Shown here piece after piece: positions 10,803 through 32,967 of a stretch of DNA of 64,000 nt. The stretch is from a virus. Made by a program: the position numbers and the translations under genes. Under the pieces are notes generated by a model. It ran no database searches, was not told the DNA's origin, and was given only the letters and a program-made list of their open reading frames with translations. The DNA is taken from IMG/VR virus record IMGVR_UViG_3300029286_000018, positions 30,350 through 94,349 of that record; one strand, 5' to 3'. The first letter of the stretch is position 1; each line of letters starts with the position of its first letter.

Positions 10803-10873
10803 TCGTAACTATATATTGGTATTCTCGTTGAGATCAATATATATAATATAAAATTTTGAAAGGATTTACAAAC

Positions 10874-11746
10874 ATGTCACTAAATAAAGATGGTTTGACC
10901 TATGATGAGAAAGAGGCAGTAATTGCCCAAGCTCTCGCTACAGAAGAGGGCCGTACTGCTCTCGCACAGGCAATGGTGGAGCCAATCCGCCGTTCTTTGG
11001 AGTATCAAGCTGTTGGTCGTAAGTTGCTCATGGTTGACGAGCTCCCACAAGGTGCTCTTCCTCGCTATGAGCGCGACGTAGCTTCTACCGCCACTGTCAT
11101 TGCTCGTCAGGGTGCAGTCCCTGACCAGATTCAGCAGGGCGAAGAAGTCCTTGTTCCAACATTCGAGATTGCTGCTCACCCAACAATCCGTTTGTCTGAA
11201 ATCAAGGCTCGTCGTTTCTACATTGTTGACCGCGCCCAGATCAAGGCAAAGGAAGCCATTCAGAAGGAAGAAGATCGCAATATCTTCAACGCTCTGATTG
11301 CTGCTGCCGATACCCGTAATGATCAGGTCGTTGGCAACAGTGGTGATCTTACTACTGATTCACTTAACGTTGCATACCGTTTGATTGAGACCCACGATCT
11401 TGTCGCAAGCAAGGTTGTTGCTCACCCACTTCAGTATGCTCGCTTCCGCGTTTTCGGCAAGACTTTCTACGATGAGGCTACAACTCGTGAAATCCTCACC
11501 ACTGGTCTCTATGGTCACCTCTGGACCGCTGACATTCACGTCAGCTCCCAGCTTGACCCTCAGACCATATTGGTGTGCGCTTCTCCCGACACCGTTGGAG
11601 CCTTCCCAATCCGCCAGGACATCACTGTCCTCCCAGCGGACGATCCGAAGAAGCTTCGCCTCGGTTGGGTAATTTATGAAGAGATCGGCATCGTTGTAAT
11701 GAACGATTACGCTCTCTCGAAGATTGAAGTTTACCGCACAAGCTAA
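10874..11746 (+). CDS. Major capsid protein, HK97 fold (no obvious delta domain)
   Basis: AAGGA RBS then ATG 10874; GRTALAQAMVEPIRRSLEYQAVGRKLLMVDELPQGALPRYERD; EEDR; GWVIYEEIGIVV; strongly biased codons; followed by a terminator. Confidence 0.9.
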   Translation: MSLNKDGLTYDEKEAVIAQALATEEGRTALAQAMVEPIRRSLEYQAVGRKLLMVDELPQGALPRYERDVASTATVIARQGAVPDQIQQGEEVLVPTFEIAAHPTIRLSEIKARRFYIVDRAQIKAKEAIQKEEDRNIFNALIAAADTRNDQVVGNSGDLTTDSLNVAYRLIETHDLVASKVVAHPLQYARFRVFGKTFYDEATTREILTTGLYGHLWTADIHVSSQLDPQTILVCASPDTVGAFPIRQDITVLPADDPKKLRLGWVIYEEIGIVVMNDYALSKIEVYRTS

Positions 11747-15769: not shown

Positions 15770-17128
15770 ATGAAGATTGAAAATAGGACTGGACATTCTG
15801 TCAATATTTCAGATATAGAAAGAAATTTTGCTCCTAAAGAAGAAGTATCATTTTATGAAATATCTAAACAAGAGCTTTTAAAAAGTATGTCTCTCCGAAA
15901 TCTTATTAGGTCTTCTAGGTTCTATCCAATTGAAATTGATAATGAGTCATCATTGGAAGTAAATTTAAAAAAAGAAAGCGACATTGTCTTATCTATGTCA
16001 TCATCAGAAAAAGAGCAAAAAAATTCTGGAGTTATTTTAAGAGGTCAATTTTTGGATTATAGTGGTTATGCTAAAGTGAATCGCAATTTAGCAGCCGTTA
16101 TTAAGAAAAATAAGATACCAATTTCTATTAATGCCGTTGATTCTGCACATCCTAGATTGATAGGGTCTGATTTGGTTCTTAGCTCAAGCTTTACGTATAC
16201 TAATAGTTCATTTGGTGATGTTGTTATTGATAGTGTTGTCCCTTCGTTTGACTCTGGTCGTGGTAGGAAGAAATCCATTCTTTACACAACAGTAGAGGCG
16301 TATACTGTGCCTGACAGCTTTTCTAAAATATTTGATCAATATGATGAAATATGGACAACTTCTAATTTTTGTAAAACTGTTATTTCTGGCAAGACTAATA
16401 AGCCAGTGCATGTAGTTCCAGGAATCGTTGATTTTGAAAACTATACAGCTTCAGGTGAAAAATTTGACCTCCATGGCAAGGCAAAGTCATTTAAATTTAT
16501 AAGTGTTTTTAATTGGAATCATCGTAAGGGTGCAGATGCACTTATTAGGGCATATTGTCAGGCGTTTAGCGGAACTGATGATGTTTCTCTTATATTGGTC
16601 TGTAGGAAAAGGCGTGTTTCAGGTCCAGCTCGGGGGGTAAAGGACGAGGTTGAAAAAGAAATAGCAAATGTCAAAATGGCCAACCCTCCACACATTGTAC
16701 GTTTAACAAAAGAGATTAATGAGATACAGTTGGCTTCTTTGTATCGTAGTTGTGATGCGTTTGTCTTGCCTACTCGTGGAGAGGGCTACGGCTTGCCTTA
16801 TTTGGAAGCTGGCTTGTGTGGCATACCTGTAATTGGCACAAAAGTTTCTGCAGTTCAAGATATCTTATCAGAAGACACAAGTCTGCTTATTGATATAGAT
16901 GGTTTTAGAAAAGTGCCAGAAAATGCCACTGGTTGTTATTTTTGGGATGGACAGATGATGGCTGATTTAACTTCTAAAGATTTTATAAATAGGCTAGCAG
17001 AGGGCATGAGGGATATGGTTAATAATTATCACAAGTATGCCGAAAAAAATAAAGCATTTCAGAATTTTATTTACACAAAGTGTTCATCACATGCTGTATT
17101 TAATACCGTAAAGGACCTATTACCTTGA
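15770..17128 (+). CDS. GT4-family (GT-B) glycosyltransferase with extra N-terminal domain
   Basis: DYSGYAKVNR, DEIWTTS, HRKGADALIRAY, LYRSCDAFVLPTRGEGYGLPYLEA (intact EX7E). Confidence 0.9.
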   Translation: MKIENRTGHSVNISDIERNFAPKEEVSFYEISKQELLKSMSLRNLIRSSRFYPIEIDNESSLEVNLKKESDIVLSMSSSEKEQKNSGVILRGQFLDYSGYAKVNRNLAAVIKKNKIPISINAVDSAHPRLIGSDLVLSSSFTYTNSSFGDVVIDSVVPSFDSGRGRKKSILYTTVEAYTVPDSFSKIFDQYDEIWTTSNFCKTVISGKTNKPVHVVPGIVDFENYTASGEKFDLHGKAKSFKFISVFNWNHRKGADALIRAYCQAFSGTDDVSLILVCRKRRVSGPARGVKDEVEKEIANVKMANPPHIVRLTKEINEIQLASLYRSCDAFVLPTRGEGYGLPYLEAGLCGIPVIGTKVSAVQDILSEDTSLLIDIDGFRKVPENATGCYFWDGQMMADLTSKDFINRLAEGMRDMVNNYHKYAEKNKAFQNFIYTKCSSHAVFNTVKDLLP

Positions 17129-17742
17129 TAGCTATAATTGATCATTCAGAAAATAAAGTTGTCATTATTGGCGACAAGTTATATCGTATTTCTTTTGACG
17201 AATTTAGTCGTGTTCAAAATTATTTAAATGAGTGTGGGTTAGTTATTATTAATGGTGACAAAGCAAGTGGACAGCACTTTTCACATAAACCTCAACTATC
17301 ATCTCAATCACTTGTATCACAAGTTAATGCTGCGCCATCTTCACGGACTGAATCTATTAAAGAATATGTGGCATGTAAAAATGGGCAGTACCTTGTAGTG
17401 AATGGGCTAGAGCCTAAGCTTCAGTTCATGGGACTTGATGATTTTAAGACTATTGATTACTTGAATACCACATATGGAAAAGTTCCTAGTCAAGTTAAAA
17501 GTCTTATAGATAGTGGCGTTCTTATTTTAATAGATGAATCAGAAAAGGTTAATCGAATAAGTAAGATGAAAGAAAAGCAATCAGTGAAAGGCAAGCGAGT
17601 CCAGCAGTCTTCAAGCAAGTCTGTGAGGCTTGCAGAAACTTCTGGTCAAGACGATATGTCTTCAGATGTTAGTGATGCTGATTATGCAGATCTTGATCCA
17701 GAAGATAGGGTTTTGAGAAATGCCGTAAAAATAGACTTATAA
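17125..17742 (+). CDS. Hypothetical protein
   Basis: 205-aa ORF overlapping the upstream stop (TTGA); central segment resembles the N-termini of ORFs 15770 and 25720. Confidence 0.65.
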   Translation: MIAIIDHSENKVVIIGDKLYRISFDEFSRVQNYLNECGLVIINGDKASGQHFSHKPQLSSQSLVSQVNAAPSSRTESIKEYVACKNGQYLVVNGLEPKLQFMGLDDFKTIDYLNTTYGKVPSQVKSLIDSGVLILIDESEKVNRISKMKEKQSVKGKRVQQSSSKSVRLAETSGQDDMSSDVSDADYADLDPEDRVLRNAVKIDL

Positions 17743-19280: not shown

Positions 19281-20076
19281 TTTTACTACTCAGTACCCAG
19301 GCACATATTATGCCTTGGTTCATGACCAAAAGAATGCATTTTATAATAAAACAACTAGACTAGTGTCAGTTGATATAACCATTTTAAATAATTTTGTTAT
19401 TTCTCTTACAAAAGACAAATTAAACTCATATGTTGCTTCAATTGTATCTGACAATCTTGAATCTGGTGTTTATACTTTTAGAATTTATAAGCAAAATGGA
19501 TCTTCTCCTGATATTACAAAAGATGATTTAATATCAGTTGGCCAAACTGGGTGGAACAAAACTTTAAATATTCAAGAAAACCCCAATGACATCATAAGAT
19601 CTATCCAAGCTTATGAAGATCGTCAAGACAGCATATGGAGAATAGACATTCTTCTTGATTCTGTCCAGCTTGGATTAAGAAATGGGGAAACTGGATTTGC
19701 TCGCTTAGATGTAGACCAGATATCCTCTAGTCTTAAAATAAAGGCATTTTGGAATTTGCAGGCAAACGTCTCTGCGACTTTTTTAAGTATTCGTGGCCCT
19801 GCTTCTCTTGGTCAGCGCACAAGTCAATTATTGAGTTGGCCGTTAAGGCAAGGCACTAAAGAGTTTACTATCACATCAAATTTACCATCTGACGTAAAAC
19901 AGATGCTATTATCTAAAGCATTCTATGTAACTATAGAAACTGCAGGTTTTCCATTTGGTCGTGTGGGAGGATATCCAATCTACACTCCATCGTCTCCAGT
20001 TGGAGCAAGTGGCACGGTCTCTTTTTCTGTTCAGCCAGGAAATCTGTCTACAGGAGTTTCGTTCAGGACTGTATAA
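19261..20076 (+). CDS. Virion-associated protein with Ig-like N-terminus and CHRD-like C-terminal domain
   Basis: Probable start MAAISF. C-terminal GFARLDVD..LKI..IRGPASLG..LLSKAFYVTIETAGFPFGRVGG resembles the CHRD 'lYvnvht..P.GeirG' signature. Confidence 0.55.
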   Translation: MAAISFNFTTQYPGTYYALVHDQKNAFYNKTTRLVSVDITILNNFVISLTKDKLNSYVASIVSDNLESGVYTFRIYKQNGSSPDITKDDLISVGQTGWNKTLNIQENPNDIIRSIQAYEDRQDSIWRIDILLDSVQLGLRNGETGFARLDVDQISSSLKIKAFWNLQANVSATFLSIRGPASLGQRTSQLLSWPLRQGTKEFTITSNLPSDVKQMLLSKAFYVTIETAGFPFGRVGGYPIYTPSSPVGASGTVSFSVQPGNLSTGVSFRTV

Positions 20077-20084
20077 AATATATT

Positions 20085-21095
20085 ATGACAAATTATGGAC
20101 AAATCGCAGAACATATAGGCAATTTTTCACAAGCTACTGCCAACAATCTTTTTCTTAAATTAACAGACATTGATGGTGTAGCAAAGTCTGCTGAAGATGT
20201 TAAAATAACAATTTCTAAAGATGACGCATATGGAGATCCTGTTATTGACATGGCGACTGCCTCTGCAGTACAACAGGGCTATTATTTTTACGATTGGGAA
20301 ATAGCTCCAGATGCTACAGTTGGCTCTTACACCATCATATGGACATACACACTAGACGGCGAGGAACAGAGTACTTTGCAGTCTGTTATTGTAAGTAAAG
20401 CTCCTGAATTAGAGAGTCCATATTGGGGCCCAGTTAACGATTTACGAATTGCGCTTGAATTTCATATTCGTCCAGCAATGAATATTCCAGTTTATTTTGA
20501 ACAGGCAAAGCCAAGTCGTGATAAGAAGACTTATAGGTTTGGATTCCCTCGTTGGAACCAAAGTGCTGGCGTTAGAGTGTATAGAAATCAAGAAATTGTT
20601 GATTCTGGTGTGACTGTTAATTATTTTAAGGGCGAAGTTACTTTTGAAAGCCCACTATCTACATATGATGTAGTAAATTGTGACTATAATTTTAGATGGT
20701 TTGAAGACTCTCAGCTTTATAGATTCTTGCAATCTGGAGTTCAAAGATATAATTCTTTTCCTGCTGTATCTTATTATGGGTTACATGCATTGCCAGAACG
20801 TGCTATAACGCCAGTTATTTATGCTGCAGTTACCGATGCGCTTCGAGAAATGCTTATGTCTTTACAGTTCCAGGAGCCACAAATGGTATTTGGAAGTCCA
20901 GAGAGAGCTCAAAATGTGTTTAGTAATCTAGATAATTTGAAGAAAAATTACGAAGAAAGTCTTAAGGGTCTGCTCGACGCCAAGAAAAATGGTCCTTACA
21001 CTGGCCTTACAAAGGCTATCGTAGTTCCAGAATACACGCTACCTGGTGGACGCAGCAGATGGTTCCGTTACTTATTCACAGGTTCAAATGTCTAA
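20085..21095 (+). CDS. Probable neck/head-completion protein with N-terminal Ig-like domain
   Basis: GYYFYDW..GSYTIIWTY Ig-like part; VNYFKGEVTF..VNCDYNF; helical connector-like C-terminus; position between head and tail genes. Confidence 0.5.
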   Translation: MTNYGQIAEHIGNFSQATANNLFLKLTDIDGVAKSAEDVKITISKDDAYGDPVIDMATASAVQQGYYFYDWEIAPDATVGSYTIIWTYTLDGEEQSTLQSVIVSKAPELESPYWGPVNDLRIALEFHIRPAMNIPVYFEQAKPSRDKKTYRFGFPRWNQSAGVRVYRNQEIVDSGVTVNYFKGEVTFESPLSTYDVVNCDYNFRWFEDSQLYRFLQSGVQRYNSFPAVSYYGLHALPERAITPVIYAAVTDALREMLMSLQFQEPQMVFGSPERAQNVFSNLDNLKKNYEESLKGLLDAKKNGPYTGLTKAIVVPEYTLPGGRSRWFRYLFTGSNV

Positions 21096-21381
21096 TATGG
21101 AAAATAAAAACAATCAAATAAGAAACGCTATTTTGGATAGCCGCGCTACTATCTTTATACTTCCTAAACAAGAAATAAAAGATGCTATTATTAAATGCAG
21201 TGATCCAGACATCAATGCATTGTCTACAGAATTAAAAAGTATTTTTTTAGAAGGCAAAGGGCTTGCAGTAGAGAACAAAATGGTCGCAGATTATATTGAA
21301 GGTAAGCTTGATTCTAAAAATGCCAAAGTAATTTCAATGTGTGAGCTTAGGGTCGTAGAGGATACAGTCAAAATTAATTAA
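21088..21381 (+). CDS. Hypothetical protein
   Basis: ORF with probable start at ATG 21088 or 21097. Confidence 0.6.
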   Translation: MSNMENKNNQIRNAILDSRATIFILPKQEIKDAIIKCSDPDINALSTELKSIFLEGKGLAVENKMVADYIEGKLDSKNAKVISMCELRVVEDTVKIN

Positions 21382-21391
21382 AACATACATC

Positions 21392-21802
21392 GTGATCACT
21401 GGCCGTACTGATCAACTTATATTTAAAGACTATGGTGAGTATTTTCACCATACAAGGCCGCTCAGTCTATATCAAAAAACTAAATTGTTCGAACACTTCC
21501 CACATGATCTTCGTTATTTTTTAGAATCTAGTTATGAAAGTGACGGATGGGACGAAGTCGTAGAGTCTAACCTATTTGAGCAAAAACTTGAAGCCATTAA
21601 AAGACAATTCAACAAAAATTTGTTTCAAATGAGAGTTAAGCTAAATAATGGTTTTAGCATAAGAGTAAAAGAGATTTTTTGGAAATTTGTCCAGCAAGAG
21701 CTGTCTGACATTTCCGATTCTCGCAAAGAGCCACTTATCGGCGGGTTAAACTATCGTTCTGATCCAAAAGATAAAAGGTGGATAATTATTAAAAAGAGGT
21801 AA
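21392..21802 (+). CDS. Hypothetical protein
   Basis: 136-aa ORF tightly packed in the operon. Confidence 0.65.
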   Translation: MITGRTDQLIFKDYGEYFHHTRPLSLYQKTKLFEHFPHDLRYFLESSYESDGWDEVVESNLFEQKLEAIKRQFNKNLFQMRVKLNNGFSIRVKEIFWKFVQQELSDISDSRKEPLIGGLNYRSDPKDKRWIIIKKR

Positions 21803-21806
21803 TTTT

Positions 21807-22520
21807 ATGAGTAAGACAACTAAGACTAAGAAAAAGGCTGTTCAGGAGATAAAGACGGGAGGCACTTACACCTACAGTGCGTTCAAGCCTCGTGACAATT
21901 TTCAAAAACTTGCAGTAGATACTGTTATGAATAACCCAGTATCTTTTATCTATGGTGTTGCTGGCACTGGTAAGACGACAGTCGCGGTTGGCTGCGCCTT
22001 GCGCTTGCTGCTGACAGATCAAATTACTAACATTGTCGTTACTCGTCCATATGTTACTGCTGGTGAAAAATTAGGGTATTTACCTGGTAATATTGAGGAT
22101 AAATTTGATCCTTTTATCATGCCTATTAAGATGATTTTAGAAAAATTGGTTGGCAAGTCTACTGCTGGTCGCTATTTTGCGAGCAATAAGATCATGATGT
22201 TACCACTTGCATACATGCGTGGTCTGACTTTTGAAAAGTCTTTCGTTATTATGGACGAGGCTCAAAACAGTACTTGCGAGCAAATGCACCTTATTCTAAC
22301 AAGACTAGGAAAAGATAGCAAGCTTTGCATTACTGGAGATGAGTTCCAAACAGACATTGATAAAAGTCATAAGAACGGCCTCACAGACGCCATTAGAAGG
22401 CTTGGTAACATAGAAGGCATTGGTTTGTTTGAATTCCCTCCAGAGAGCTGTCAGCGTCATGCCTTGGTTGCGCAGATCGATTCTCGCTACAAGGATGGGG
22501 TAAAGAATTTTAGGCAATAA
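21807..22520 (+). CDS. phoH: PhoH-family ATPase
   Basis: GVAGTGKT Walker A, TRP..AGEKLGYLPG, YMRGLTF, MDEAQN, TRLG..ITGD..QTD, RH. Confidence 0.95.
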   Translation: MSKTTKTKKKAVQEIKTGGTYTYSAFKPRDNFQKLAVDTVMNNPVSFIYGVAGTGKTTVAVGCALRLLLTDQITNIVVTRPYVTAGEKLGYLPGNIEDKFDPFIMPIKMILEKLVGKSTAGRYFASNKIMMLPLAYMRGLTFEKSFVIMDEAQNSTCEQMHLILTRLGKDSKLCITGDEFQTDIDKSHKNGLTDAIRRLGNIEGIGLFEFPPESCQRHALVAQIDSRYKDGVKNFRQ

Positions 22521-22536
22521 GGCTTATTGCTAAAAT
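22507..22536. repeat. ~30-bp imperfect palindrome across the phoH stop
   Basis: ATTTTAG(G)CAATAAG-G-CTTATTGCTAAAAT: 14-bp arms with one bulge. Confidence 0.6.
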
Positions 22537-22602
22537 GTATTTATGGCAATGTCCTGGAGGGCATATGCTATAAATTTCGAAATATAATTGTTAGGAGATA
22601 TT

Positions 22603-25533
22603 ATGAAAAATTTATTCCACATAAACAGTATTTATCATACAGCCGCTAAAAATAGCAAGGGCTTAGGGTCTTCTGAAAAAGGCATTAATGTCAATGCCCT
22701 TAAACAAGAAGCTATTGCTATGATTAAACAACACCTAAATGAAAAAAAAACTGTTAACTCTATTCAGGCTGATCCTCGATTTACGGCAATCCAAGAGTTA
22801 TTGGCGATGGATGGATCTGACGATGCCAATGATGCTCTAGATACGATATTGACCATGTTAACTTCACATTATGTGGACCCAACGAGTGAGCCGGTAGAAG
22901 ACTGGAGGAAAGCTACTGAACTTAGTATTAACGTAAATAGTGATCCCTATAAACTTCTTACTAGATTAAATCAGGTTGCATCTGAAAAAATTTCTATAGT
23001 TATTAATGACTTTAGGAATTTTAACACTGCTCCATATGTAAACTGCGCTGACCCAGGAACTCGTAATTGGGCGTTATCTTATGCTAATACTAAAGCGAGA
23101 CATCAGGACGAGTATTATCAAGCGCTGGGTGACTTAGAAGGCCGAAAATTATGGTTTGTTGCAGAAGACTTTTTTAGTGCTAATGCTCCTGTTGTGTATA
23201 CGTATTACGCTCATGACCCATCAAAGCTTGCCGCTATAAATAACTATATGCTACAACGTTTTAATCTTTATGCAAATCGTAGCACATCATCAGGAGGTTA
23301 CGATGCAGAAAAGTTGCGTAAATCTTTACAGGGCGCGGTAGATGGCCCTTTGAAGGCTGCTCCTTGGCATCTGAATAGGTATTTTGAAAATGGTAAGGAA
23401 CATTTATTTGCTGAAAAATTACTTGCAGACTTTACTGAAAGATTAGCTCAAGAAGATCCTCAGGCAATGTGTGCCTTAATGGCTCGTATGCGAATTTACT
23501 TACACGGACATGAAGACGTGAAAAAATTATTTACTAAAGAACCTGAGTCAACTGATGGAGGATTAGCTGATTTTGATGAAAAAGCGCGATTTAGAAAAGA
23601 TGAAGCAAAAGAAAATCTATCTTTATCGGAATCTCTTCACGGCAGGGCTACTAAAGAAGTCGCTAAAACAGGCATAGTGGTTGGCGACAATTTGCTATCT
23701 GATGGCCCTGATTCTATTTCATATGAGTTTAATAAAGTATTCACAGAATATAATGAAGGCTTGCAAGGGATGCTTAATCTTACAAATCAGCAAGCGCATC
23801 CAATAAAATACGCACAGCTTGTTGCTCATAATGCAGATTTTCAAGATGCTGCTGCGCAGGCGCAAGAGAAAATAAATACTTGGAAATACAACTACAAGTA
23901 TGAAAAAAATATGAGAACTCAAAACGGCCAGTATGATAATAGATGGCGTGCATCTAATGTTGATATAATGTTCAATAGGGCCTTCTCGTCCGGATACATT
24001 GATGACCAGAATAGATTAAGATTTATGTTTAGTGGTAAAAATAAAATAGTCAACATAAAAATATATTTAAAGCCTAGTGCTAGTATTGTCAAGCATGACT
24101 CTAATGGCAGGGTTATTCGTAACACCAAACCAAGAACATGGACAGTAGATTTAATTGATGTAAGCTTTAGCTGGGCGTCACTTGATAAAAATGGGCTGAC
24201 TGGCAATACTGCAACTGGCTTTTTAATTCGTGATGCGTCAAAGGGCGATAATCAAATATCGGTAAATAATGCGTCCGTTTTTAAATCTAATGATCAAGTT
24301 TTTATTGCCTCTTCTCAATCTGTTGGAAGTGAAAATGTAGATGAGGCTGTTTATGAAGCTGATTTGGTTGTATCAAAAATTATTGATAACCAAAATATTT
24401 TGTTAAAATCTCCATTGCGTTTTAATTGGGATATGACTAGAAATCCATTTGTGCGCTTGAAGTCTGATAAATCGAAAAAAATTCCTGAATATATTTCTGA
24501 GGTAGGTGGTGATTGTTTGGAAGACGAGATTACTGTCTCTAAAAACATAAAAAATACTGCAAATCCTGCGGATTTTCCAAGTGGTCCATTTACCACTTTA
24601 AGTTCTTCTTATTTAGAGGATAAGGATAGGGAAGACATCTCATTAGCTGCTAGTATAGTTCGTGAAGAGCTAGCAGAAAATTTTCATTTATTGAAACCAT
24701 TATCTGCTGGTTTCAAGCAAGGTTGGGGAGACAAAACTCCTGCAGATGGTATGCGTAACCTGCAGAGAAATAATCCTGCAGAATACGCAAGCTATGTATC
24801 TTTGGTGAACGTAATAGTCGGGTACCTTAAGAGAAAACTAGTACATTTTCAAGAGAAGTCTGGGCTGACAGATGAGGCGATTGAATGCTATGTATCAATT
24901 GGAAATCCGTCTTTGCAAGCATCAATAAAAAAGCTTAATGACGCCATCGCCGATCCATCGAATGCAGATGATAAGAATAGACTCCAAGTTTCCTTAAAAG
25001 AGCTAACTATGGCAAAAGATCTATTTGATATAGTATTGATTGGTGGCAAAGACTCTTCATTTAAAGGTAAGCCTGGTGCAATGGATATCATAAAATGGTT
25101 TGAAACAAGTGTAATAGCTTTGATAGAAAGTGACAAACTTGAAAAAATACTTAAAAATACTCAAAATAGACAATTATATGAAATGATTCAAAGGCAATCA
25201 GCTGTGATTATGAAAAAGGAGCTTGAAAAAATTGATGATTTTCATGTACTAGATTTTGCTGCAACGATAATGCGTGGATCAAATGCTTCTGCAGAAAAAC
25301 AAGCTTGTAGAGTTGAAAGAAAAAACTTTGAGCCATACATGCTTAGATATCTTGAGTCAAACCCAAATGTTAAAATCTTGTACAATGCAATGTTTGGAGG
25401 ATGCAAACCTGATGAGAATAAGCAAGCAGATTGCGAAGACTGTTATAAAAAGACATCTAGCTTGTCTTCTGGCATTTATGAAAGTATTGATCAGTGGTTA
25501 AGACATATTGCTAGAAAGACATACCTTGAATGA
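22603..25533 (+). CDS. Large hypothetical protein, mostly helical, with one inserted beta module; possibly internal virion protein
   Basis: AGGAGA RBS before ATG 22603 (MKNLF); ~976 aa; module shared with neck proteins at ~24220-24430. Confidence 0.65.
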   Translation: MKNLFHINSIYHTAAKNSKGLGSSEKGINVNALKQEAIAMIKQHLNEKKTVNSIQADPRFTAIQELLAMDGSDDANDALDTILTMLTSHYVDPTSEPVEDWRKATELSINVNSDPYKLLTRLNQVASEKISIVINDFRNFNTAPYVNCADPGTRNWALSYANTKARHQDEYYQALGDLEGRKLWFVAEDFFSANAPVVYTYYAHDPSKLAAINNYMLQRFNLYANRSTSSGGYDAEKLRKSLQGAVDGPLKAAPWHLNRYFENGKEHLFAEKLLADFTERLAQEDPQAMCALMARMRIYLHGHEDVKKLFTKEPESTDGGLADFDEKARFRKDEAKENLSLSESLHGRATKEVAKTGIVVGDNLLSDGPDSISYEFNKVFTEYNEGLQGMLNLTNQQAHPIKYAQLVAHNADFQDAAAQAQEKINTWKYNYKYEKNMRTQNGQYDNRWRASNVDIMFNRAFSSGYIDDQNRLRFMFSGKNKIVNIKIYLKPSASIVKHDSNGRVIRNTKPRTWTVDLIDVSFSWASLDKNGLTGNTATGFLIRDASKGDNQISVNNASVFKSNDQVFIASSQSVGSENVDEAVYEADLVVSKIIDNQNILLKSPLRFNWDMTRNPFVRLKSDKSKKIPEYISEVGGDCLEDEITVSKNIKNTANPADFPSGPFTTLSSSYLEDKDREDISLAASIVREELAENFHLLKPLSAGFKQGWGDKTPADGMRNLQRNNPAEYASYVSLVNVIVGYLKRKLVHFQEKSGLTDEAIECYVSIGNPSLQASIKKLNDAIADPSNADDKNRLQVSLKELTMAKDLFDIVLIGGKDSSFKGKPGAMDIIKWFETSVIALIESDKLEKILKNTQNRQLYEMIQRQSAVIMKKELEKIDDFHVLDFAATIMRGSNASAEKQACRVERKNFEPYMLRYLESNPNVKILYNAMFGGCKPDENKQADCEDCYKKTSSLSSGIYESIDQWLRHIARKTYLE

Positions 25534-25720
25534 TAGTCAAATTAATTTATCTTGTGTGTGCGAGCATTGTTCAAAAACAGTGAGTGATAATATCAAGATA
25601 GAGCTTAATTTTGCAAGTAAGATTATTTACTGGTATTGCCCTGAGTGTAAGCAAATGAACGAAATAGATTTTAAGTCTCTTAAGGATTTAAAAGCACTTC
25701 CCAAGATGAGGTTAATGTAA
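25526..25720 (+). CDS. Small zinc-ribbon protein
   Basis: CEHC...WYCPEC; start uncertain (TTG 25526 or 25508). Confidence 0.65.
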   Translation: MNDSQINLSCVCEHCSKTVSDNIKIELNFASKIIYWYCPECKQMNEIDFKSLKDLKALPKMRLM

Positions 25721-26223
25721 TGTACAGTATAGTAAACACTTCTGGAAGATATTTGAGCATACAGGATTTAAGAATAATGCTTTCTCCAAGAGAGCGTATT
25801 GATTTAGATAATGTTTGTGAGAGAAGAGAGATTGAGAGTAGCGTTCATCTTAAATCTGCGCTTAAAAAAGGTTACATTAAGGTGGTGATTAAAGATCGCG
25901 AAGGCTTTGATCCTAACCAGTCAGTTAGCTCTCCTAGTGTGATCACAAAAGATGACCTTGACAGAGTTAAGCAGGACATTGCTGGCATTATTAAAGAGGC
26001 TCTTTCTTCCATAAAAGTTGTTGGGTCTTCCAATGAGACAGTTCCTCAAGTAAACGTCAATGTTGGTGGGATAGAAATGTCAGATACTATTTTAGAAGCA
26101 ATACATAAAAAAACAGTTGATAGGTTAATGATAAATTCTGAAAAAGCAGTTGAAGTAAAGCAATCAAAAACTAACAATGTTAATATGGATAAAAATCTCG
26201 ACGAGCTTGAGGGCTTATTATAG
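25720..26223 (+). CDS. Hypothetical protein; candidate adaptor for the adjacent actin-like ATPase
   Basis: N-terminal domain shared with ORF 15770; helical C-terminus ending NLDELEGLL. Confidence 0.65.
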   Translation: MYSIVNTSGRYLSIQDLRIMLSPRERIDLDNVCERREIESSVHLKSALKKGYIKVVIKDREGFDPNQSVSSPSVITKDDLDRVKQDIAGIIKEALSSIKVVGSSNETVPQVNVNVGGIEMSDTILEAIHKKTVDRLMINSEKAVEVKQSKTNNVNMDKNLDELEGLL

Positions 26224-26231
26224 GAGTAGTT

Positions 26232-27287
26232 ATGTCAATATCAGTAGGCTATGATGTCGGTACAATGTTTTGTCAAATGGCTAAGCAGGACTCAGGTGGA
26301 TCCACTGCCATGTCCACTATTCGCAATGCTTTCGTTGAAATTCCAGAATCAGAAGATGTTGAGGAAGTTCTTTCTCGCAATGGATGGCAATGGGTTCGTG
26401 ACGGGAAAAGTGTTTTTGTTATTGGAGAAGATAGCGTTCAGGTTGCAAAGTTATTTCCAGGCAAAGTTGAGATACGTCGCCCTCTTCAGGATGGAGTTTT
26501 GAACAAGAACGAAGAGAAGAAAAATATAGTTCTCGCTTCTATCATAGAAAGTCAGTTAGGTAAGGCTATAGGTGAAGGTTCTGTTGTTGCAACTTGTATA
26601 TCTTCTCCGTGCATAGATGGTAGCGGAGACAGCACTTTTCATACTGCTCGTTTGAAGGGCATGTTCTCTAGACTTGGTTGGAACGTAAAGGTAATTGAGG
26701 AGGCTCTTGCTGTAGTTCTTAGCGAAAGACCTTGCGTAATTGATGACGATGGATCTGAAGTTCCTTATTCAGGTATAGGTATGAGTTTTGGAGCTGGTAG
26801 GGCTAACTGCATGCTAGCGTTTAAGGGAATGCCAATACTGGGAATGAGTGTTTCAAGATCTGGCGACTGGATTGATAAAATGGTTAGCGAACAGACTGGA
26901 GTTCCTATTGCTCAGGTAATGGAGACAAAAGAAAAGAAACTAGATTTTAATAAAATTGATATGGATAATGATGTAATGTTTGCCCTTGATGCTTATTATG
27001 ACGCCATGCTTAAGCATGTTTTCTCTTTATTTGCTAAAAAATTCAAAGAAGTAAAAAGCGATTTTAACAAACCGCTCGACATCGTTTTGGCTGGCGGAAC
27101 AAGCATGCCAAGTGGATTTGATAAAAAAGTTGATTCTATTGTAAGGTCTTTTGATCTTCCTTTCAAAATAAACTCAGTTAGAAAAAGTAAAGACCCAAGA
27201 AATTCAGTTGTTACTGGCTTGCTAACTCAGGCAGAAATAGTAAGACGTAAGTTGGAAAAAGGACAAATAACAAAGGATAGCATTTAA
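26232..27287 (+). CDS. Actin-fold ATPase (MreB/MamK/ParM-like)
   Basis: VGYDVGT (phosphate 1), IEEALAV (connect 1), IGMSFGAG (phosphate 2), SGDWID, IVLAGGTS (adenosine), DPRNSVVTG (connect 2). Confidence 0.85.
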   Translation: MSISVGYDVGTMFCQMAKQDSGGSTAMSTIRNAFVEIPESEDVEEVLSRNGWQWVRDGKSVFVIGEDSVQVAKLFPGKVEIRRPLQDGVLNKNEEKKNIVLASIIESQLGKAIGEGSVVATCISSPCIDGSGDSTFHTARLKGMFSRLGWNVKVIEEALAVVLSERPCVIDDDGSEVPYSGIGMSFGAGRANCMLAFKGMPILGMSVSRSGDWIDKMVSEQTGVPIAQVMETKEKKLDFNKIDMDNDVMFALDAYYDAMLKHVFSLFAKKFKEVKSDFNKPLDIVLAGGTSMPSGFDKKVDSIVRSFDLPFKINSVRKSKDPRNSVVTGLLTQAEIVRRKLEKGQITKDSI

Positions 27288-28012
27288 TGGGATATTGTAC
27301 TCCACAACTTGTTCAGCGCATTTTAGTGCAATCTTTAACGTCTGCCACTACTCCTACGACTACTGGTAAAGGTTCTTTGCTGAACTTTGGCAACAGTATT
27401 GATAAGAATCTCATCACAGATGAAATAATGAATCAGCACATCAATATTGCTGATACTTTCATTAACAGTACTCTGAGTGTTCTTTATAAAACTCCGTTAA
27501 GAGAAATTGCTGACATTGAGTGCAAGCTCGCTGTTGACATTGATGTATACAATAATGAGGTGATACTTGTTTCTCCTCAAGCTAATGTATTTGTCCCAGG
27601 AGATATCATCGTAATTAATGATGGTGTTTATGAAGATAAGCTGACAGTATCAAGTATTATTGGTGATAATATTCTAAAGTTTGATGACATTATAGCGGGT
27701 ATTTTCTCAGCAGATTCTACAAGAATCTTAAGAGTTAGATTCCCAGACCCTATCCCAAATACGAGCGCAAGATTGGCTGCAGCAAGTATCTATGACAGAT
27801 ATTTTTCTGCACAATCAACAAGCCAGCAGTCTGATTTTGCCAAGACTCTTAAGAGTATGTGTAGGGCTGATTTGAATAATATCTTAAACGGACGTGCAGT
27901 TCTTCATGGTCAGCATAGAATTGGCGATAGATTCTTAAACTCGCACCTTAAGGACCGTTATGGCCTCAGGGGTATGGAGAGTGATTCTACAAGAGATGTG
28001 GGTGAATTCTAA
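27287..28012 (+). CDS. Head-tail connector (Mu gp36/HK97 gp6-like) with inserted beta domain
   Basis: MGYCT..INIADTFINSTLSVLYKTPL..[insert]..PDPIPNTSARLAAASIY..LNNILNG. Confidence 0.65.
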   Translation: MGYCTPQLVQRILVQSLTSATTPTTTGKGSLLNFGNSIDKNLITDEIMNQHINIADTFINSTLSVLYKTPLREIADIECKLAVDIDVYNNEVILVSPQANVFVPGDIIVINDGVYEDKLTVSSIIGDNILKFDDIIAGIFSADSTRILRVRFPDPIPNTSARLAAASIYDRYFSAQSTSQQSDFAKTLKSMCRADLNNILNGRAVLHGQHRIGDRFLNSHLKDRYGLRGMESDSTRDVGEF

Positions 28013-28305
28013 TGCCTTCACAAGATATAAGTAACTTGCAAAAAGAATTAAAACAGCTGCATGACTCATTGAATGTGCTGAAAGAAATTAAAATGAATAA
28101 GCCTATTTCATCAATGTCTTCTTCTGTGTTCTCTACCAGAGAAGCCGCTAAAGCTTCTGCTCCTTTTAGACCAGAACCTACAAAATCGCTATCCACCGAA
28201 GAAGTGGAAAAATTAGTGACAAATGAATCTGATATGGTTGATTATGTTGAAAATTTAGTATCTAAAAATTTGGATGATGTTATTGGAAAAATGTTAGGCG
28301 ATTAA
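28012..28305 (+). CDS. Hypothetical protein
   Basis: 97-aa ORF coupled to the upstream gene by TAATG overlap. Confidence 0.6.
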   Translation: MPSQDISNLQKELKQLHDSLNVLKEIKMNKPISSMSSSVFSTREAAKASAPFRPEPTKSLSTEEVEKLVTNESDMVDYVENLVSKNLDDVIGKMLGD

Positions 28306-28308
28306 TAT

Positions 28309-29208
28309 ATGGAAGAAGTACTTGATAGTCTTAGAAAAATAATCAACAGGTGGGTAAATACAGAAGTCGATCTCACTGAAGACGCTGAGGTCGGTGACGT
28401 ACTATTAAAAGTAAAAACTGCGATGCGCTTTAGAGATGGTGACGAGGTAATGCTAACTGATGGAAATGAATTTGAGCACCCTCTCTACGTAAAGAGTGTA
28501 GTTGATGAAACTACCATTGAGTTGGCTTCTTCTCTTAAGTTTGTGTGGTCTGTTTCTAAAGGAAGTAAAGTTAAAAAAGCAGTTGCTGGCAAGCTTGTTC
28601 AGAGTATTTTCTTAGGTGAGCCAAATGTAATTCAAAGATTCCCAGCCATCGTGGTGGTTGGAGATAATCAAAATTCACAATGGACTACTTTTGAGTCAAC
28701 GACTGAAACATATGATGTAAGTATATCTTCATATATTGAAGACAGTACTTTAGAAGATGGATATAGGGCATTGATGCGGATGACAAAGCTTATTGAATTT
28801 GGATTAAAAAGAAATATGTTTCCATTAGTGGGTGAACGTTCTCATGCTTCAATTATTCAGCCTATTGCTCCAGGTGATATATATTTAAAAGTTGATAGCA
28901 CTGCAGGAATGGTCTCAGAGCAGCTAATACTTCTTGAAAGTACCTTCCGAGCAGAGCAGGTTGTCATTAAGAGTATCCTTGATGAAAGCACAATCGAATT
29001 GGTGCAGGGCGCATATTACCCATATCCTTTAATTGACGATCCTCGTGCAATAATAGTGACAAGGTTCTTGTATAAGTGTTGGCCAAAAACAATTAATTAT
29101 GGATTTGTCCATAAGGACACATTACTTAAGGCTAGCAAAATTAGTTGGTCTGGCGAAGAAATTCAACAGCATGGCCCTATCGGATGGTGGGATACTCCGA
29201 GAAATTAA
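28309..29208 (+). CDS. Probable tail terminator/completion protein with two inserted beta modules
   Basis: IFLGEP..FPAIVV..YDVSISSY core; position before the tail tube; two copies of the inserted module. Confidence 0.5.
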   Translation: MEEVLDSLRKIINRWVNTEVDLTEDAEVGDVLLKVKTAMRFRDGDEVMLTDGNEFEHPLYVKSVVDETTIELASSLKFVWSVSKGSKVKKAVAGKLVQSIFLGEPNVIQRFPAIVVVGDNQNSQWTTFESTTETYDVSISSYIEDSTLEDGYRALMRMTKLIEFGLKRNMFPLVGERSHASIIQPIAPGDIYLKVDSTAGMVSEQLILLESTFRAEQVVIKSILDESTIELVQGAYYPYPLIDDPRAIIVTRFLYKCWPKTINYGFVHKDTLLKASKISWSGEEIQQHGPIGWWDTPRN

Positions 29209-29213
29209 TATCT

Positions 29214-30362
29214 ATGAAGATATTAATAATTGGTCCATCGCCCTACATGCATCATGATCCTGGTTTAATAGTAAGAGATGTTCTTGAGCAAGCAAGTGCT
29301 GACCATACATTGTATGGGTGTTTTTTTCATCACGATTTTTCTAAACATCCAGTTGATCACGTACAAAACTATGTACACGGAGAAGTTTCTGTGCCATCTA
29401 AGTGGATAGACAATTCGCAGGCTAATGCTGCGGTTATAGATACTTATGACTGCATTATGGATAATGAAATTGAAGCAGTTGTAAGTGTTGGTTCTACAAT
29501 GGAGTCAGAATTTATTAGAGCTGCAATAGAAACTTCTGGTAAATCTTTACCGTGGTTTCATGTAATGTCCATGTCAAATCACATGCATGATGATCGTTAT
29601 TCTGAAACTTTAAATGCGATTTCTCACATATGGACTTATTCTGAATCTCAGAAAGAAAACATACAGTCAAAGTGTGGAGTGTTAGAAGATAATATTTCTG
29701 TGTTGTCAAGACGTAGTGAGCTTTTATCTCAATCTAATAGTGAGAAAAAATGTGATCTCGTCTTTGGTGGATGGAATACCGAATCCTACAACTTGCGGTC
29801 AATCTTCGAAGCTGCATCATTAACCACATCATCTGTTAAGTGTTTGACAAATTATTTCGAGCATGGCGATTTCGATCTTGACAAGATGGGAAATTATTTT
29901 TTCCCAAAGATTAATCTATTCCCATCCGATTTTGCAAGCTTATTTGAAAAGCCATCGTTTTCTCAGTGGGATGATTTTATAGAAAATTCATATGTATTTG
30001 TTGATATGAGCATGACTCAGAACGGTTGCTCTACCCTAAAAAGGGCATGGAAGTCTGGTGCTCAATGCGTGGTTATAGATACACCTAGACACAGAGAGAT
30101 GGCTAGCCAGATGCCTGGTATCATTTTAGTAAAATCCTCTGTGTTTTTTAGTTTATCTGGGATTAAGCTGTATGTTCCAGATCATCTATTATTAAATCTA
30201 ATATTGTCAGACATTTTGCAGGATAAACATACAAAAGTCTGCAAACCATCTATAAGTAACGAATCTAAAGAAAAAGAACAGAAGGAATTCAGCAATTTAT
30301 TAAATAAATTAATACGAATAGCATCTTTAGGAAGGTTTCTAGATCTAGAGTCAATAACATAG
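29214..30362 (+). CDS. Degenerate GT4-like (GT-B) protein, probably catalytically inactive
   Basis: Start MKILIIGPSP. FIENSYVFVDMSMTQNGCSTLKRAWKSGAQCVVID aligns with GT4 'advfv.pS..EgFgl..lEAma.G.pvv' but lacks both glutamates. Confidence 0.5.
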   Translation: MKILIIGPSPYMHHDPGLIVRDVLEQASADHTLYGCFFHHDFSKHPVDHVQNYVHGEVSVPSKWIDNSQANAAVIDTYDCIMDNEIEAVVSVGSTMESEFIRAAIETSGKSLPWFHVMSMSNHMHDDRYSETLNAISHIWTYSESQKENIQSKCGVLEDNISVLSRRSELLSQSNSEKKCDLVFGGWNTESYNLRSIFEAASLTTSSVKCLTNYFEHGDFDLDKMGNYFFPKINLFPSDFASLFEKPSFSQWDDFIENSYVFVDMSMTQNGCSTLKRAWKSGAQCVVIDTPRHREMASQMPGIILVKSSVFFSLSGIKLYVPDHLLLNLILSDILQDKHTKVCKPSISNESKEKEQKEFSNLLNKLIRIASLGRFLDLESIT

Positions 30363-30381
30363 GGTGGAGGAATTAATCAAA

Positions 30382-30768
30382 ATGGCAAGCATCTCTTTTA
30401 GTAAGTATAAAATAATTTCTGACAACATAGGTGACGCTCGCACTTCCATACTGTCGGCAATCGACAATATGTTTGCCGCCGTTTATGAGGTAGCTGTACT
30501 TGACGATGTCCAGTCTACTCTAGATCTTCTACAGCCCATGTTTGCCGCCTATCAGCTGGCAGATCAGACGCTTCGTAGTATCAATACTTTTACTTCTGCA
30601 GTCACAGCTTTGAATAACCACGTTGTGCGTAGAAATTCGTCTTATACAACAGTCAATGATTTTTTGGCTGCAAATAATGCGGATCAAGTAGGCAACAAGC
30701 TAGATCCAGAGTTTATAGATATTTCAAACACGCTTGGATACGCAGTTCAATCTAAGTATTCTGCGTAA
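30382..30768 (+). CDS. Hypothetical helical protein, probably structural
   Basis: GGAGG RBS then ATG 30382 (MASISF); directly upstream of the tail tube. Confidence 0.7.
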   Translation: MASISFSKYKIISDNIGDARTSILSAIDNMFAAVYEVAVLDDVQSTLDLLQPMFAAYQLADQTLRSINTFTSAVTALNNHVVRRNSSYTTVNDFLAANNADQVGNKLDPEFIDISNTLGYAVQSKYSA

Positions 30769-30787
30769 TTAATAATAGAGGAGTAGC

Positions 30788-31897
30788 ATGTCAGTAGAAG
30801 GACAACCATCATTTAGCGTTCCTCCACCGTTGGGTCTTGCAGATCCAACGGCTCGTCCAGCATATGCTGGATATTCAGGCTTTGTAACATACGAGGCCAC
30901 TCTTGGCGGTGCACTTAAGAAATATTTGCTACGCGCAGATCGCTGCAGCTTGAAGGGCACGCAAGCGATTGATACTGTCAAAGATATTGATGGTTCTATT
31001 GATTCAACCAGATATGCTTTAAAGTCTTTTGAAGTAAACGGGGACGTATCATTCAATCTAGACTCTGCTCCAGACAGCGTTGGGTATAAAGCTTTTGCTC
31101 AGCTTTATTCAGATACAGTGTTGCGCAGTGCAGATGGTAGACTAAAGATTAGAGAGGTTCCTGGATCTCGCAATATGCTGGTGCGCTACAACAGCGAAGT
31201 TTCTTATAGATATCTTGATATAGTTCCAAGCAAAATGAGCATTGAATGTGCTGCTGGTGAAGCATTGCGTGTCTCCGTATCCTTCATGGGTAGAGGCCGT
31301 GAGGGGCCATTTGATGGCACTACAGCTGTCATGGGTGATGGTCTTGGCGCTACCGTGGACGGTAGTGTCAATGTTGCTCCCGTGCGCGTAGTCACATATA
31401 ACGACGTTACTATTGACATAGAGTCTGCCCCTATTTCAACAGGCGTTGTTGTCAATACTCCTCCTAGCATTACTCGTCTCCCTTTAGTTAAGAGCTTTAA
31501 AGTTGATATCGACAACGCTGTTGAGGCTGTTCATACGCTCAGCGGAACTCTCGCTGCATATGACCTTGTTGCTAAGAAAAGAACAATTAGTGGAAGCATA
31601 ACATTCTTGGGTAGAAACAGAGACATTGGTGACTACGCATTGTATAATGAAATTGGTCAAACTTCACGTGCCAACTTGCTGTTTAATGTAAGATTTGGCA
31701 ACGTGACAAAGACTTTGTTCAAGTTACGTGGCGTGGTCTTTAAGATTGAGTCTATGGATCTCACTAATGACGTTCTAAACTCAACTATGGAATTTATGGC
31801 TCTTGGAGATCAAGCATTTAACTATGAATCTATTTCAGCTCTTGAAACTCCAAACACCAGTGCCAACGGATCTCAACATCCGTACCCATTCATTTAA
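30788..31897 (+). CDS. Major tail tube protein
   Basis: GAGGAG RBS; EVNGDVSF, SKMSIECAAGEALRVSVSFMG, VKSFKVDIDN, RTISGSITF; precedes chaperones and tape measure. Confidence 0.75.
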   Translation: MSVEGQPSFSVPPPLGLADPTARPAYAGYSGFVTYEATLGGALKKYLLRADRCSLKGTQAIDTVKDIDGSIDSTRYALKSFEVNGDVSFNLDSAPDSVGYKAFAQLYSDTVLRSADGRLKIREVPGSRNMLVRYNSEVSYRYLDIVPSKMSIECAAGEALRVSVSFMGRGREGPFDGTTAVMGDGLGATVDGSVNVAPVRVVTYNDVTIDIESAPISTGVVVNTPPSITRLPLVKSFKVDIDNAVEAVHTLSGTLAAYDLVAKKRTISGSITFLGRNRDIGDYALYNEIGQTSRANLLFNVRFGNVTKTLFKLRGVVFKIESMDLTNDVLNSTMEFMALGDQAFNYESISALETPNTSANGSQHPYPFI

Positions 31898-31931
31898 AAT
31901 GTCGATAGAACATTGAGGTTCTATCGTATTT

Positions 31932-32339
31932 GTGAATAACTTAGTTATCAATCAAGACGTAAAGGCTTATATAATAAGCGGTGGCTTTGTTTCCGCTGAG
32001 CTATTGGCTGAGCAGCCAGAATATCCTCTCCCAGAAAATGTTTTTATATTAAAATTAGAGTCTACTTGGAAATATCCAACTATATCAAGTAGAAAAACCT
32101 TGGTAAAAGAACTTGAGGTTTTTGATCCAATCAAGGTTGAGATAACAGTAGATAATATTACATATAAAAATGCTTTTATTAAGCATTATATCCAATCTTG
32201 GAACATACGTGGTCCAGACATAGATGAAGGCGGCGACGCAAGTAAGATAGAAGACTTGCCATGCGACCTAGTTGACATCATGTATCAGGGTATTATGGGA
32301 GTGTCAAAAAAGGCGGAGGAAGAGCTGGGAAAAGTCTAA
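31932..32339 (+). CDS. Tail assembly chaperone (gpG-like)
   Basis: IQSWNI..IEDLPCDLV; ends in G-GGA-AAA slippery site. Confidence 0.75.
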   Translation: MNNLVINQDVKAYIISGGFVSAELLAEQPEYPLPENVFILKLESTWKYPTISSRKTLVKELEVFDPIKVEITVDNITYKNAFIKHYIQSWNIRGPDIDEGGDASKIEDLPCDLVDIMYQGIMGVSKKAEEELGKV

Positions 32340-32566
32340 AGGCGCTTCGTGATATGATGACAGAATCCAAGTTTGATGAAGCGCCTGAAATGTTAAAAGA
32401 GTATATCCTAGCTCAAGACTTAGGATGGTCTTTAGAATATATTAGATCTTTATCCGAAAATGATAGAGATAAATTTTTTATGTTAGCCATTACAAAAATG
32501 TCATATAAAAATTTCGATATCATGAATATGATGGCTATCACAACTACAGGTAAATCACTTATTTAA
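32327..32566 (+). CDS. -1 frameshift extension of the tail chaperone (gpGT-like)
   Basis: GGGAAAA at 32327-32333; the -1 frame reads GKSLKALRD into MMTESK...LAQDLGWSLEYIRSL. Confidence 0.8.
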   Translation, partial: GKSLKALRDMMTESKFDEAPEMLKEYILAQDLGWSLEYIRSLSENDRDKFFMLAITKMSYKNFDIMNMMAITTTGKSLI

Positions 32567-32576
32567 AGGAGAAAAT

Positions 32577-32963
32577 ATGGGAATTTTTATAACAGACAAT
32601 GACACAGTAGACGTTTCTTTTTTTGTTGGGGCAGTTGACAATGAGATGCTTTGTTCAGAGACAGAGGCAGAGGCCAAGGACAAATTTAAAGAAAATGCTT
32701 TTGAAAAGCATTTCATCAGTTTTAAGAAAATGAATTATGGTACAATGAAAAAAGTACAAGCTGCATGCATGCAGGAATCAGACGGTAAGTTTGTATTTAA
32801 TCCATTAAGATTTAGAGCAGAAAGATTTATGCAGTCTATTAAAAAGTGGTCATTCAAGGACGCGGCTGGCAATACTGTTCCGATTAGTTCTCAAACAATC
32901 GACAGTTTGTCTGACGTAGTAGCAAACTTTTTAATTGACTTGTTTGAAAGGAAAACAGGTTAA
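32577..32963 (+). CDS. Second tail assembly chaperone-like protein
   Basis: AAGGAGA RBS; SIKKWSFKDAAGNTVPISSQTIDSLSDVVA; immediately before the tape measure gene. Confidence 0.65.
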   Translation: MGIFITDNDTVDVSFFVGAVDNEMLCSETEAEAKDKFKENAFEKHFISFKKMNYGTMKKVQAACMQESDGKFVFNPLRFRAERFMQSIKKWSFKDAAGNTVPISSQTIDSLSDVVANFLIDLFERKTG

Positions 32964-32967
32964 ATAA

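Follow-up and report, generated by a model that had tools for sequence, protein, structure and literature searches.

We analysed a 64,000-nucleotide stretch of viral DNA (hereafter the window; positions 30,350 to 94,349 of the IMG/VR record IMGVR_UViG_3300029286_000018) in which a gene for an actin-fold protein forms a compact cassette with a Zn-ribbon gene and a gene for a 167-aa protein, here called the partner, directly upstream of a candidate head-tail adaptor gene. The window is part of a 94-kb viral contig with a CheckV completeness of 23%, which corresponds to a genome of ~400 kb, and its DNA is present in lake-water and freshwater metagenomes of 17 studies. We consider the source to be an uncultured freshwater phage of roughly this size. 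Nearly all of the window's genes are on the + strand, and the actin cassette lies among virion genes of the same strand with minimal gaps.

The block that holds the cassette opens with the gene for a large variable protein (981 aa; 22588-25533, + strand; the probable true start is the ATG at 22603). The Zn-ribbon gene follows (64-70 aa, + strand) and ends at 25720. Two TTG codons, at 25508 and 25526, are candidate starts, and it is uncertain which of them is used; the stop codon shares a TAATG at 25718-25722 with the start of the partner gene (25720-26223, + strand). The partner stop, a TAG at 26221-26223, overlaps the AGGAG ribosome-binding site of the actin gene (26222-26226), and the actin ATG at 26232 is 5 nt further on. 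A second TAATG, at 27285-27289, joins the actin gene (26232-27287, + strand) to the adaptor gene (27287-28012, + strand). These sites were read from the sequence on the + strand, and the Zn-ribbon, 167-aa and actin open reading frames (ORFs) and the actin-adaptor overlap read as an earlier note on this DNA had described them.

The actin-fold protein

The 351-aa product of the ORF at 26232-27287 is, with near certainty, a volactin-family actin-fold protein, and its predicted function is that of an ATPase. It matches the Pfam family Volactin (PF25216) with 184.7 bits (cut-off 35; E 3.9e-54) along its full length, residues 5-334 aligning with positions 3-321 of the 321-position model, and likewise when the whole record is searched. 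The match to MreB_Mbl (PF06723) is below the gathering threshold (21.6 bits versus 27) and covers residues 58-124 only, and a phmmer search of the actin against the PDB gave nothing significant. The AlphaFold2 (AF2) model, built with 26 homologues as input, has a pLDDT (predicted local distance difference test) of 88.5 and a pTM (predicted template modelling score) of 0.88. In an exhaustive VIA structure search its best neighbours were BeeR and crenactin (Z 24.9 each) and MreB (Z 23.1), with the nucleotide-binding domains of Hsp70 and FtsA further down at Z ~21 (Hsp70 20-21) and ParM at 18-20. Foldseek ranked MamK, MreB, actin and BeeR at the top (E ~1e-12 to 1e-13). MreB, MamK, crenactin and BeeR are thus the closest solved folds (Z 20.9-24.9, 289-316 residues aligned), although sequence identity to them is only 13-19%.

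All five actin-fold motifs that the earlier note had listed are present, and in an alignment they are invariant across the 26 homologues. They comprise phosphate-1 (D8-x-G10-T11), connect-1 (R82-R83-P84...G88-V-L-N91), phosphate-2 (G181-I-G-M-S185-F-G-A-G-R-A-N192), adenosine (A287-G-G-T-S291) and connect-2 (P322...G329), with I-E156-E157 in the catalytic region. The individual invariant residues include D8, G10, T11, E156, E157, G187, G189, N192 and G288-G289-T290. The phosphate-2 loop (aa 181-192; 26772-26807, + strand) is non-canonical in that Ser185 takes the place of the Asp found in actin, MreB and ParM. This substitution is family-wide, and the cellular volactins examined carry the same S-x-G-x-G-x-x-N variant as the phage actin.

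An exhaustive profile search gave 750 clusters (50% identity) at E<=0.001, and many of the proteins of ~700-800 aa among them are volactins split by inteins (Hint plus a LAGLIDADG or HNH endonuclease). The intein-bearing set includes P0121, P0122, P0124, P0130, P0132, P0138 and others, with loci L048-L064. There are three insertion sites: after S185 inside phosphate-2, at N192/C193, and before S210 of an S-G-D-W motif. One of the intein-bearing proteins falls in the megaphage clade, and a standard cassette (L056) has an allele without the intein that is 99% identical to it over the matched segments. Inteins usually target the most constrained, functionally critical sites of their host proteins. 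Their clustering at the nucleotide-binding loop therefore argues that the atypical phosphate-2 loop is functional, and more generally the inteins point to residues that matter in volactins. Two further proteins of ~730-750 aa (P0134 and P0177) link two volactin domains covalently, one behind the other, into a double actin.

The family founder, volactin of Haloferax volcanii (VolA, HVO_2015), belongs to the same Pfam family, and it is through the model of this family, whose gathering score the phage protein exceeds by far, that we liken the phage protein to it. VolA forms dynamic filaments in vivo and controls Haloferax cell shape (PMC10869688). The phage gene differs in being viral, in lying in a morphogenesis operon and in being accompanied by Zn-ribbon and partner genes. 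From the filament-forming structural neighbours and the filaments of the founder we infer that the phage actin polymerises, and we consider it probable that it does so and works with the partner late in infection.

The fold alone leaves room for a non-polymerising ATPase, given how near the Hsp70 nucleotide-binding domains and FtsA come in structure. Such a protein could chaperone head-tail joining, as the earlier note had also considered, or the assembly of neck or tail proteins, acting by Hsp70-like ATP-driven domain closure with the 167-aa protein as co-factor. The atypical phosphate-2 loop would suit this role, as would the position of the gene among morphogenesis genes, its stop overlapping the adaptor start. 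However, the actin ORF has no substrate-binding domain, its best structural neighbours are filament formers, and the founder of its family polymerises (PMC10869688), so that we regard a chaperone as unlikely; the gene contexts described below lower its standing further.

The partner protein and DNA positioning

The partner consists of an N-terminal alpha/beta domain (aa 1-58), a linker, helices and a C-terminal D-E-L-E-G-L-L. In alignment, the N-domain of ~58 aa is conserved, the linker is variable and of low complexity, and the C-terminal motif is nearly invariant. Within the C-terminal peptide (aa 156-167; 26185-26220, + strand), a candidate docking helix recognised from the alignment, E162 and L163 are invariant, and E164 and L166 are at least 90% conserved. 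AF2 models the N-domain as a small beta-rich alpha/beta unit with pLDDT ~90 (68 for the whole protein). The earlier note had given the 167-aa protein a C-terminal helix; the conserved end of the protein is firm, whereas the helix itself (156-166) is modelled at low confidence only.

The N-domain has no Foldseek match at E<0.001 and no Pfam match. Its top structural match, a weak one, is B. subtilis YqbF (2hjq; Foldseek probability 0.66, VIA Z 4.3), and an Atlas search with the partner gave no usable lead. No ribbon-helix-helix (RHH) or helix-turn-helix (HTH) fold was detected in the partner by Foldseek or VIA, which returned low-similarity matches only.

The same note had proposed that the partner shares a docking-like N-terminus with other proteins of the window. 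The ~50 N-terminal residues of a glycosyltransferase (15770-17128) do align in register with the partner N-domain, from the very N-terminus (BLASTP E 0.28; hhalign E 0.028). When an HMM of the N-domain was run against the 317 ORFs of the window, the glycosyltransferase scored E 0.007 and the next match E 1.3. A third proposed copy, at 17125-17742, found no support. An N-terminal module common to the glycosyltransferase and the partner is therefore a marginal lead, drawn from sequence comparison; if it is real, the N-domain may recruit proteins to the actin system.

ParMRC of plasmid R1 and AlpAC of the Corynebacterium prophage CGP3 likewise pair the gene of an actin-fold ATPase with that of a small adjacent adaptor, whose C-terminal region could dock on the filament. 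By analogy, the phage actin could form filaments that segregate or position phage genomes through a DNA-binding adaptor. The adaptor-then-actin gene order resembles these systems, and the C-terminal helix of the partner recalls that of ParR. A precedent for a phage-borne actin is AlpC (PMC4446434), and Salactin, another haloarchaeal actin, is cited in PMC10869688 as aiding DNA partitioning.

Against this possibility stand several differences from ParMRC and AlpAC. No tandem or dispersed repeat array was found in 21000-29000 or in 20000-33000, where short two-copy repeats occur at chance level only, so that the absence of a parC-like iteron array, already remarked on in the earlier note, holds in and around the cassette. 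The absence of centromere-like repeats, together with the lack of a detectable RHH or HTH fold in the partner, makes a ParMRC-type partition system unlikely, and the genomic context is structural rather than replicative. ParM structures are also more distant from the phage actin than are BeeR, crenactin and MreB. DNA positioning, which the earlier note had already disfavoured, is the least likely of the roles considered here, and we give it very little weight.

Conservation in huge phages and in cellular relatives

At E<=0.001 the actin has 498 homologues; the best 120 of the 498 are 58-99% identical, and many are on contigs of 100-465 kb. Gene order was compared in 16 related IMG/VR loci on contigs of 42-548 kb (identity ranges are from the first 13 loci). 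Their common order is PhoH, a large variable protein (714-1034 aa), Zn ribbon, partner, actin and adaptor, followed by genes for proteins of ~88, ~300, ~380 and ~125 aa and then the tail tube gene. The partner is near the actin in 16 of 16 loci. The Zn ribbon is present in 14 of them; it was not called in L002, and L058 has a 75-aa ORF without a match at its position. Synteny in related phages, a check that the earlier note had proposed, thus places the three-gene cassette beside the adaptor in every relative examined, apart from the two loci just named for the Zn ribbon.

The actin is the best-conserved gene within the block (53-68% identity, versus 38-52% for the adaptor and 26-37% for the tube protein). 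It is not the best-conserved gene of the whole phage, since the capsid protein reaches 75-76% where the actin has 59-60%. Each of two near-complete relatives (98-100%; 494 and 548 kb) has one volactin copy. It is near-certain that the actin belongs to the core genes of a huge-phage clade.

Actin and adaptor genes are adjacent in all related loci, with a gap that ranges from a 1-nt overlap to 83 nt. Translational coupling of the actin to the connector, as claimed by the earlier note, is consistent with the TAATG of the window; it is not conserved in relatives, which also argues against a chaperone tied to the adaptor. The partner-actin junction tolerates insertions in some relatives: in one subclade, HNH and methyltransferase-like genes and small ORFs lie between partner and actin.

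By eye, the inserts in this subclade comprise a multi-Zn-finger HNH endonuclease and a DNA methyltransferase-like gene inside the cassette (L005:6666-7580 and L006:5870-6436). An ORF of 72-74 aa also occupies the partner-actin gap (L006:7524-7742, L005:7590-7814, L018:1313-1531). It resembles the N-arm of the capsid protein (aa 14-47 of the major capsid protein of the window) at 53-56% identity and ends in N-R-F-(E/K)-I-L-D-L; N-R-F-E-I-L-D-L-E also occurs in the adjoining 114-aa ORF at L006:7178-7522. Judged by this resemblance, the small protein may mimic the capsid and serve the actin cassette as an accessory, and in this one subclade a capsid N-arm look-alike beside the actin gene may mark a link to capsids. 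L018 (JBECUL010000084.1, 7.6 kb) was binned with Candidatus Asgardarchaeum abyssi and carries Zn ribbon, partner, actin (59% identity), adaptor and tube genes. We take it, almost with certainty, to be a piece of a huge phage that was wrongly assigned to an Asgard metagenome-assembled genome (MAG).

Outside this clade, a tblastn search with the actin in 50,697 phage records gave matches in two uncultured huge phages only (28-29% identity) and none in Bacillus phage G. The neighbours of these two distant actins have no BLAST similarity to genes of the window. Further viral contigs carry volactins in unrelated contexts.

Cellular volactins, sought in one genome per prokaryotic species, are 30-37% identical to the phage actin and come from Planctomycetota, Patescibacteria, Nitrospirota, Chloroflexota and Thermoplasmatales MAGs. 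The Planctomycetota subgroup L022-L028 (seven loci) has, directly before the actin gene, a gene for a protein of ~272 aa whose N-terminus matches the profile of the phage partner at E 1e-13 to 1e-15 (HMM). Its middle is a coiled coil and its C-terminus reads A-D-L-L-G-G-I-D. The Planctomycetota pair therefore has the partner N-domain, helical linker and acidic-hydrophobic C-terminal peptide of the phage pair; it differs in the longer coiled-coil linker, in its cellular neighbours and in a GC content of 64-70%, versus 37% in the window. The Planctomycetota loci have no Zn-ribbon homologue. The neighbours at one of them are genes for an RNase D-like exonuclease, a lysyl-phosphatidylglycerol (PG) synthase-type membrane protein and an ABC transporter.

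The occurrence of actin and partner together in phages and in one Planctomycetota subgroup makes them a conserved pair. As the actin is the only other component common to both settings, the conserved ends of the partner most likely contact the actin. Since the partner is kept in a cellular setting that has no capsids, contact with the actin is also more likely than contact with a virion part. The proposal that the 167-aa protein is an adaptor of the actin thereby gains independent support, while docking on the capsid, which the earlier note had entertained, is weakened. A chaperone for virion proteins is likewise harder to reconcile with the same pair in Planctomycetota chromosomes, where there are no virion genes nearby.

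A phylogenetic tree was made with a quick IQ-TREE search (LG+G4) and rooted on E. coli MreB and FtsA. The 33 phage actins form one clade (SH-aLRT 100) on a stem of 0.97 substitutions per site, and this clade is sister to the Planctomycetota clade (SH-aLRT 98); identity to the cellular members is only 30-37%. An insertion of ~8 aa before phosphate-2 is common to the phage and Planctomycetota clades. On the evidence of this tree, the phage actin clade is of single ancestry. Actin and partner were probably captured once; the sister topology is compatible with transfer in either direction. Of the other huge-phage actins, LR745208 groups with archaeal sequences, and the ORF preceding its gene has no significant match to the partner N-domain HMM (E 0.79); LR756511 forms a long basal branch. 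These scattered positions, together with the unrelated gene contexts, indicate that phages acquired the volactin family several times.

The sister relationship to a cellular module also bears on a different role, in which actin and partner would take over the host, remodelling or freezing the way it is shaped or divides, perhaps so that very large virions fit inside. The control of cell shape by volactin in Haloferax (PMC10869688) is in line with this, and huge virions plausibly need changes at the level of the cell. Yet the cassette is fixed in position inside the neck/tail block in 16 of 16 related loci, and no membrane-targeting helix is evident, which leaves host takeover improbable in our view.

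In the cellular volactin set, gas-vesicle gene clusters of Nitrospirota, Patescibacteria and Chloroflexota MAGs (L030, L037, L038) also hold a volactin-family actin. Pfam confirmed a GvpL/F-DnaJ fusion in L038, a GvpA+GvpK fusion in L037 and GvpH/Hsp20 in L030, and L031, L033, L040 and L044 have similar-looking neighbours. A protein of ~130-173 aa is encoded immediately upstream of the actin in the gas-vesicle loci; it has no Pfam match where tested, and its N-terminus is HTH-like by eye only. There are hints here of a link between the actin and the formation or positioning of gas vesicles.

Late virion production and neighbouring genes

Taken as a whole, we lean towards the phage actin being a nucleotide-binding filament former of the volactin family that, with its partner, organises a late step of virion production. 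In this scenario, filaments of the actin would form late in infection, with the 167-aa partner taking part. The conserved N-domain of the partner, its C-terminal acidic-hydrophobic peptide or both would touch the actin, and the partner would nucleate, bundle or anchor the filaments. The filaments could then organise late virion production, for example by positioning filled heads and tails or bringing them together.

Evidence for expression comes from assembled contigs, which cannot rank genes, prove co-transcription or exclude DNA carry-over. In contigs from two lake metatranscriptomes the capsid gene has depths of 46 and 21, compared with 2-4 for scattered pieces elsewhere, a contrast that fits RNA rather than DNA carry-over. 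A 349-nt contig from an RNA library (run X19) matches 27112-27460 with 3 mismatches and crosses the actin-adaptor junction. In the runs compared, RNA contigs leave much of 25474-26807 uncovered, which is uninformative on expression. Together these contigs give weak support to the view that the phage is active and the actin-adaptor junction transcribed.

Several observations weigh against a filament system acting late with its partner. The phosphate-2 loop is without its usual Asp, and the Hsp70 nucleotide-binding domains and FtsA are only ~3.5 Z under the best filament formers. The tail of the partner, the candidate contact site, is an AF2 helix of low confidence. Coupling to the adaptor is not conserved in relatives, one subclade separates partner from actin, and the RNA contigs are subject to the limits just given.

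A more specific and tentative possibility is that an ancient cellular module of volactin and coiled-coil partner was captured once by the ancestor of this widespread clade of phages of 0.35-0.55 Mb, gained the Zn ribbon, became fixed in the neck/tail operon and there builds an actin scaffold or track along which heads and tails of giant size come together. This, as a whole, we regard as doubtful; if true, viruses of prokaryotes would here have their first actin-driven assembly line for virions.

To our knowledge, phage-built cytoskeletons are known mainly as the PhuZ tubulin spindles of nucleus-forming jumbo phages, plus the prophage actin AlpC, which acts on DNA. Our literature search found no description of a phage volactin or huge-phage actin. 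PhuZ/TubZ likewise form cytomotive filaments in very large phages and have been proposed to help organise the making of virions (PMC7950403). The system described here differs in that its filament protein belongs to the actin superfamily rather than to the tubulins and its gene is in a late structural block. The tubulin/FtsZ domain PF00091 has no match in the record that contains the window or in four relatives, two of them 98-100% complete. If the actin has the role that we favour, bacterial viruses would have a second, independent way to organise their factories, found in a globally distributed, tubulin-less clade of huge phages. The volactin family, whose biochemistry is barely known, would be tied to a defined (putative) binding partner. 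The Planctomycetota gene pair makes the module open to study in a cellular setting.

The 241-aa protein encoded downstream of the actin (27287-28012) is plausibly a head-tail adaptor like Mu gp36/DUF1320, with an inserted module. Its matches are sub-threshold but consistent: 22.6 bits to PF07030 (cut-off 24.7; E 1.2e-4) and E 3.5e-5 to phrog_195, while PF07030 matches the adaptor in five of nine relatives at E<=0.01 (best 7.1e-5). Its sole PDB match, a weak one (E 0.79), is the DUF1320 protein 8rka, and tblastn of the adaptor found nothing. The connector identity given in the earlier note may therefore stand as a candidate, although PF07030 is below its cut-off.

The Zn-ribbon protein has the layout CxxC...CxxC with an I-E-I-N-F core and a basic tail; its four Cys are invariant in nine homologues, and its matches to Pfam Zn ribbons are weak. 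At the position of the 981-aa protein an ORF of 714-1034 aa is found in 16 of 16 related loci, yet without BLASTP similarity to that of the window. The 981-aa protein has no Pfam or PHROG match, PHROGs holding no family for the actin or the partner either, and an Atlas search (whose record begins at residue 6) gave no useful neighbours for it.

Other virion genes in the window encode a Mu-type portal fused to a DUF559 nuclease (1659-3911), the major capsid protein (10856-11746; phrog_2522, E 7.6e-63; 52% identity to gp27 of Bacillus phage G) and the tail tube protein (30788-31897). The capsid protein is shared with phage G, the gene order is not. Auxiliary genes among the virion genes are those for a GNAT acetyltransferase, a CCA-adding enzyme, the glycosyltransferase, a subtilase and PhoH. 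A sigma-70 promoter scan was at chance level (41 sites observed versus 42.8 expected), and a terminator-like hairpin of good quality lies just 3' of the tube gene, at 31903-31926.

Among the window's further proteins, one of 336 aa (20085-21095) has no Pfam match and only a weak match to a PHROG of unknown function; it is 43-55% identical in most of the related loci that cover its position. A beta module of ~65 aa also appears, plausibly and by eye in the translations, to be repeated in the 981-aa, 241-aa and 299-aa proteins (24220-29060). If this is correct, these three proteins would be related virion parts.

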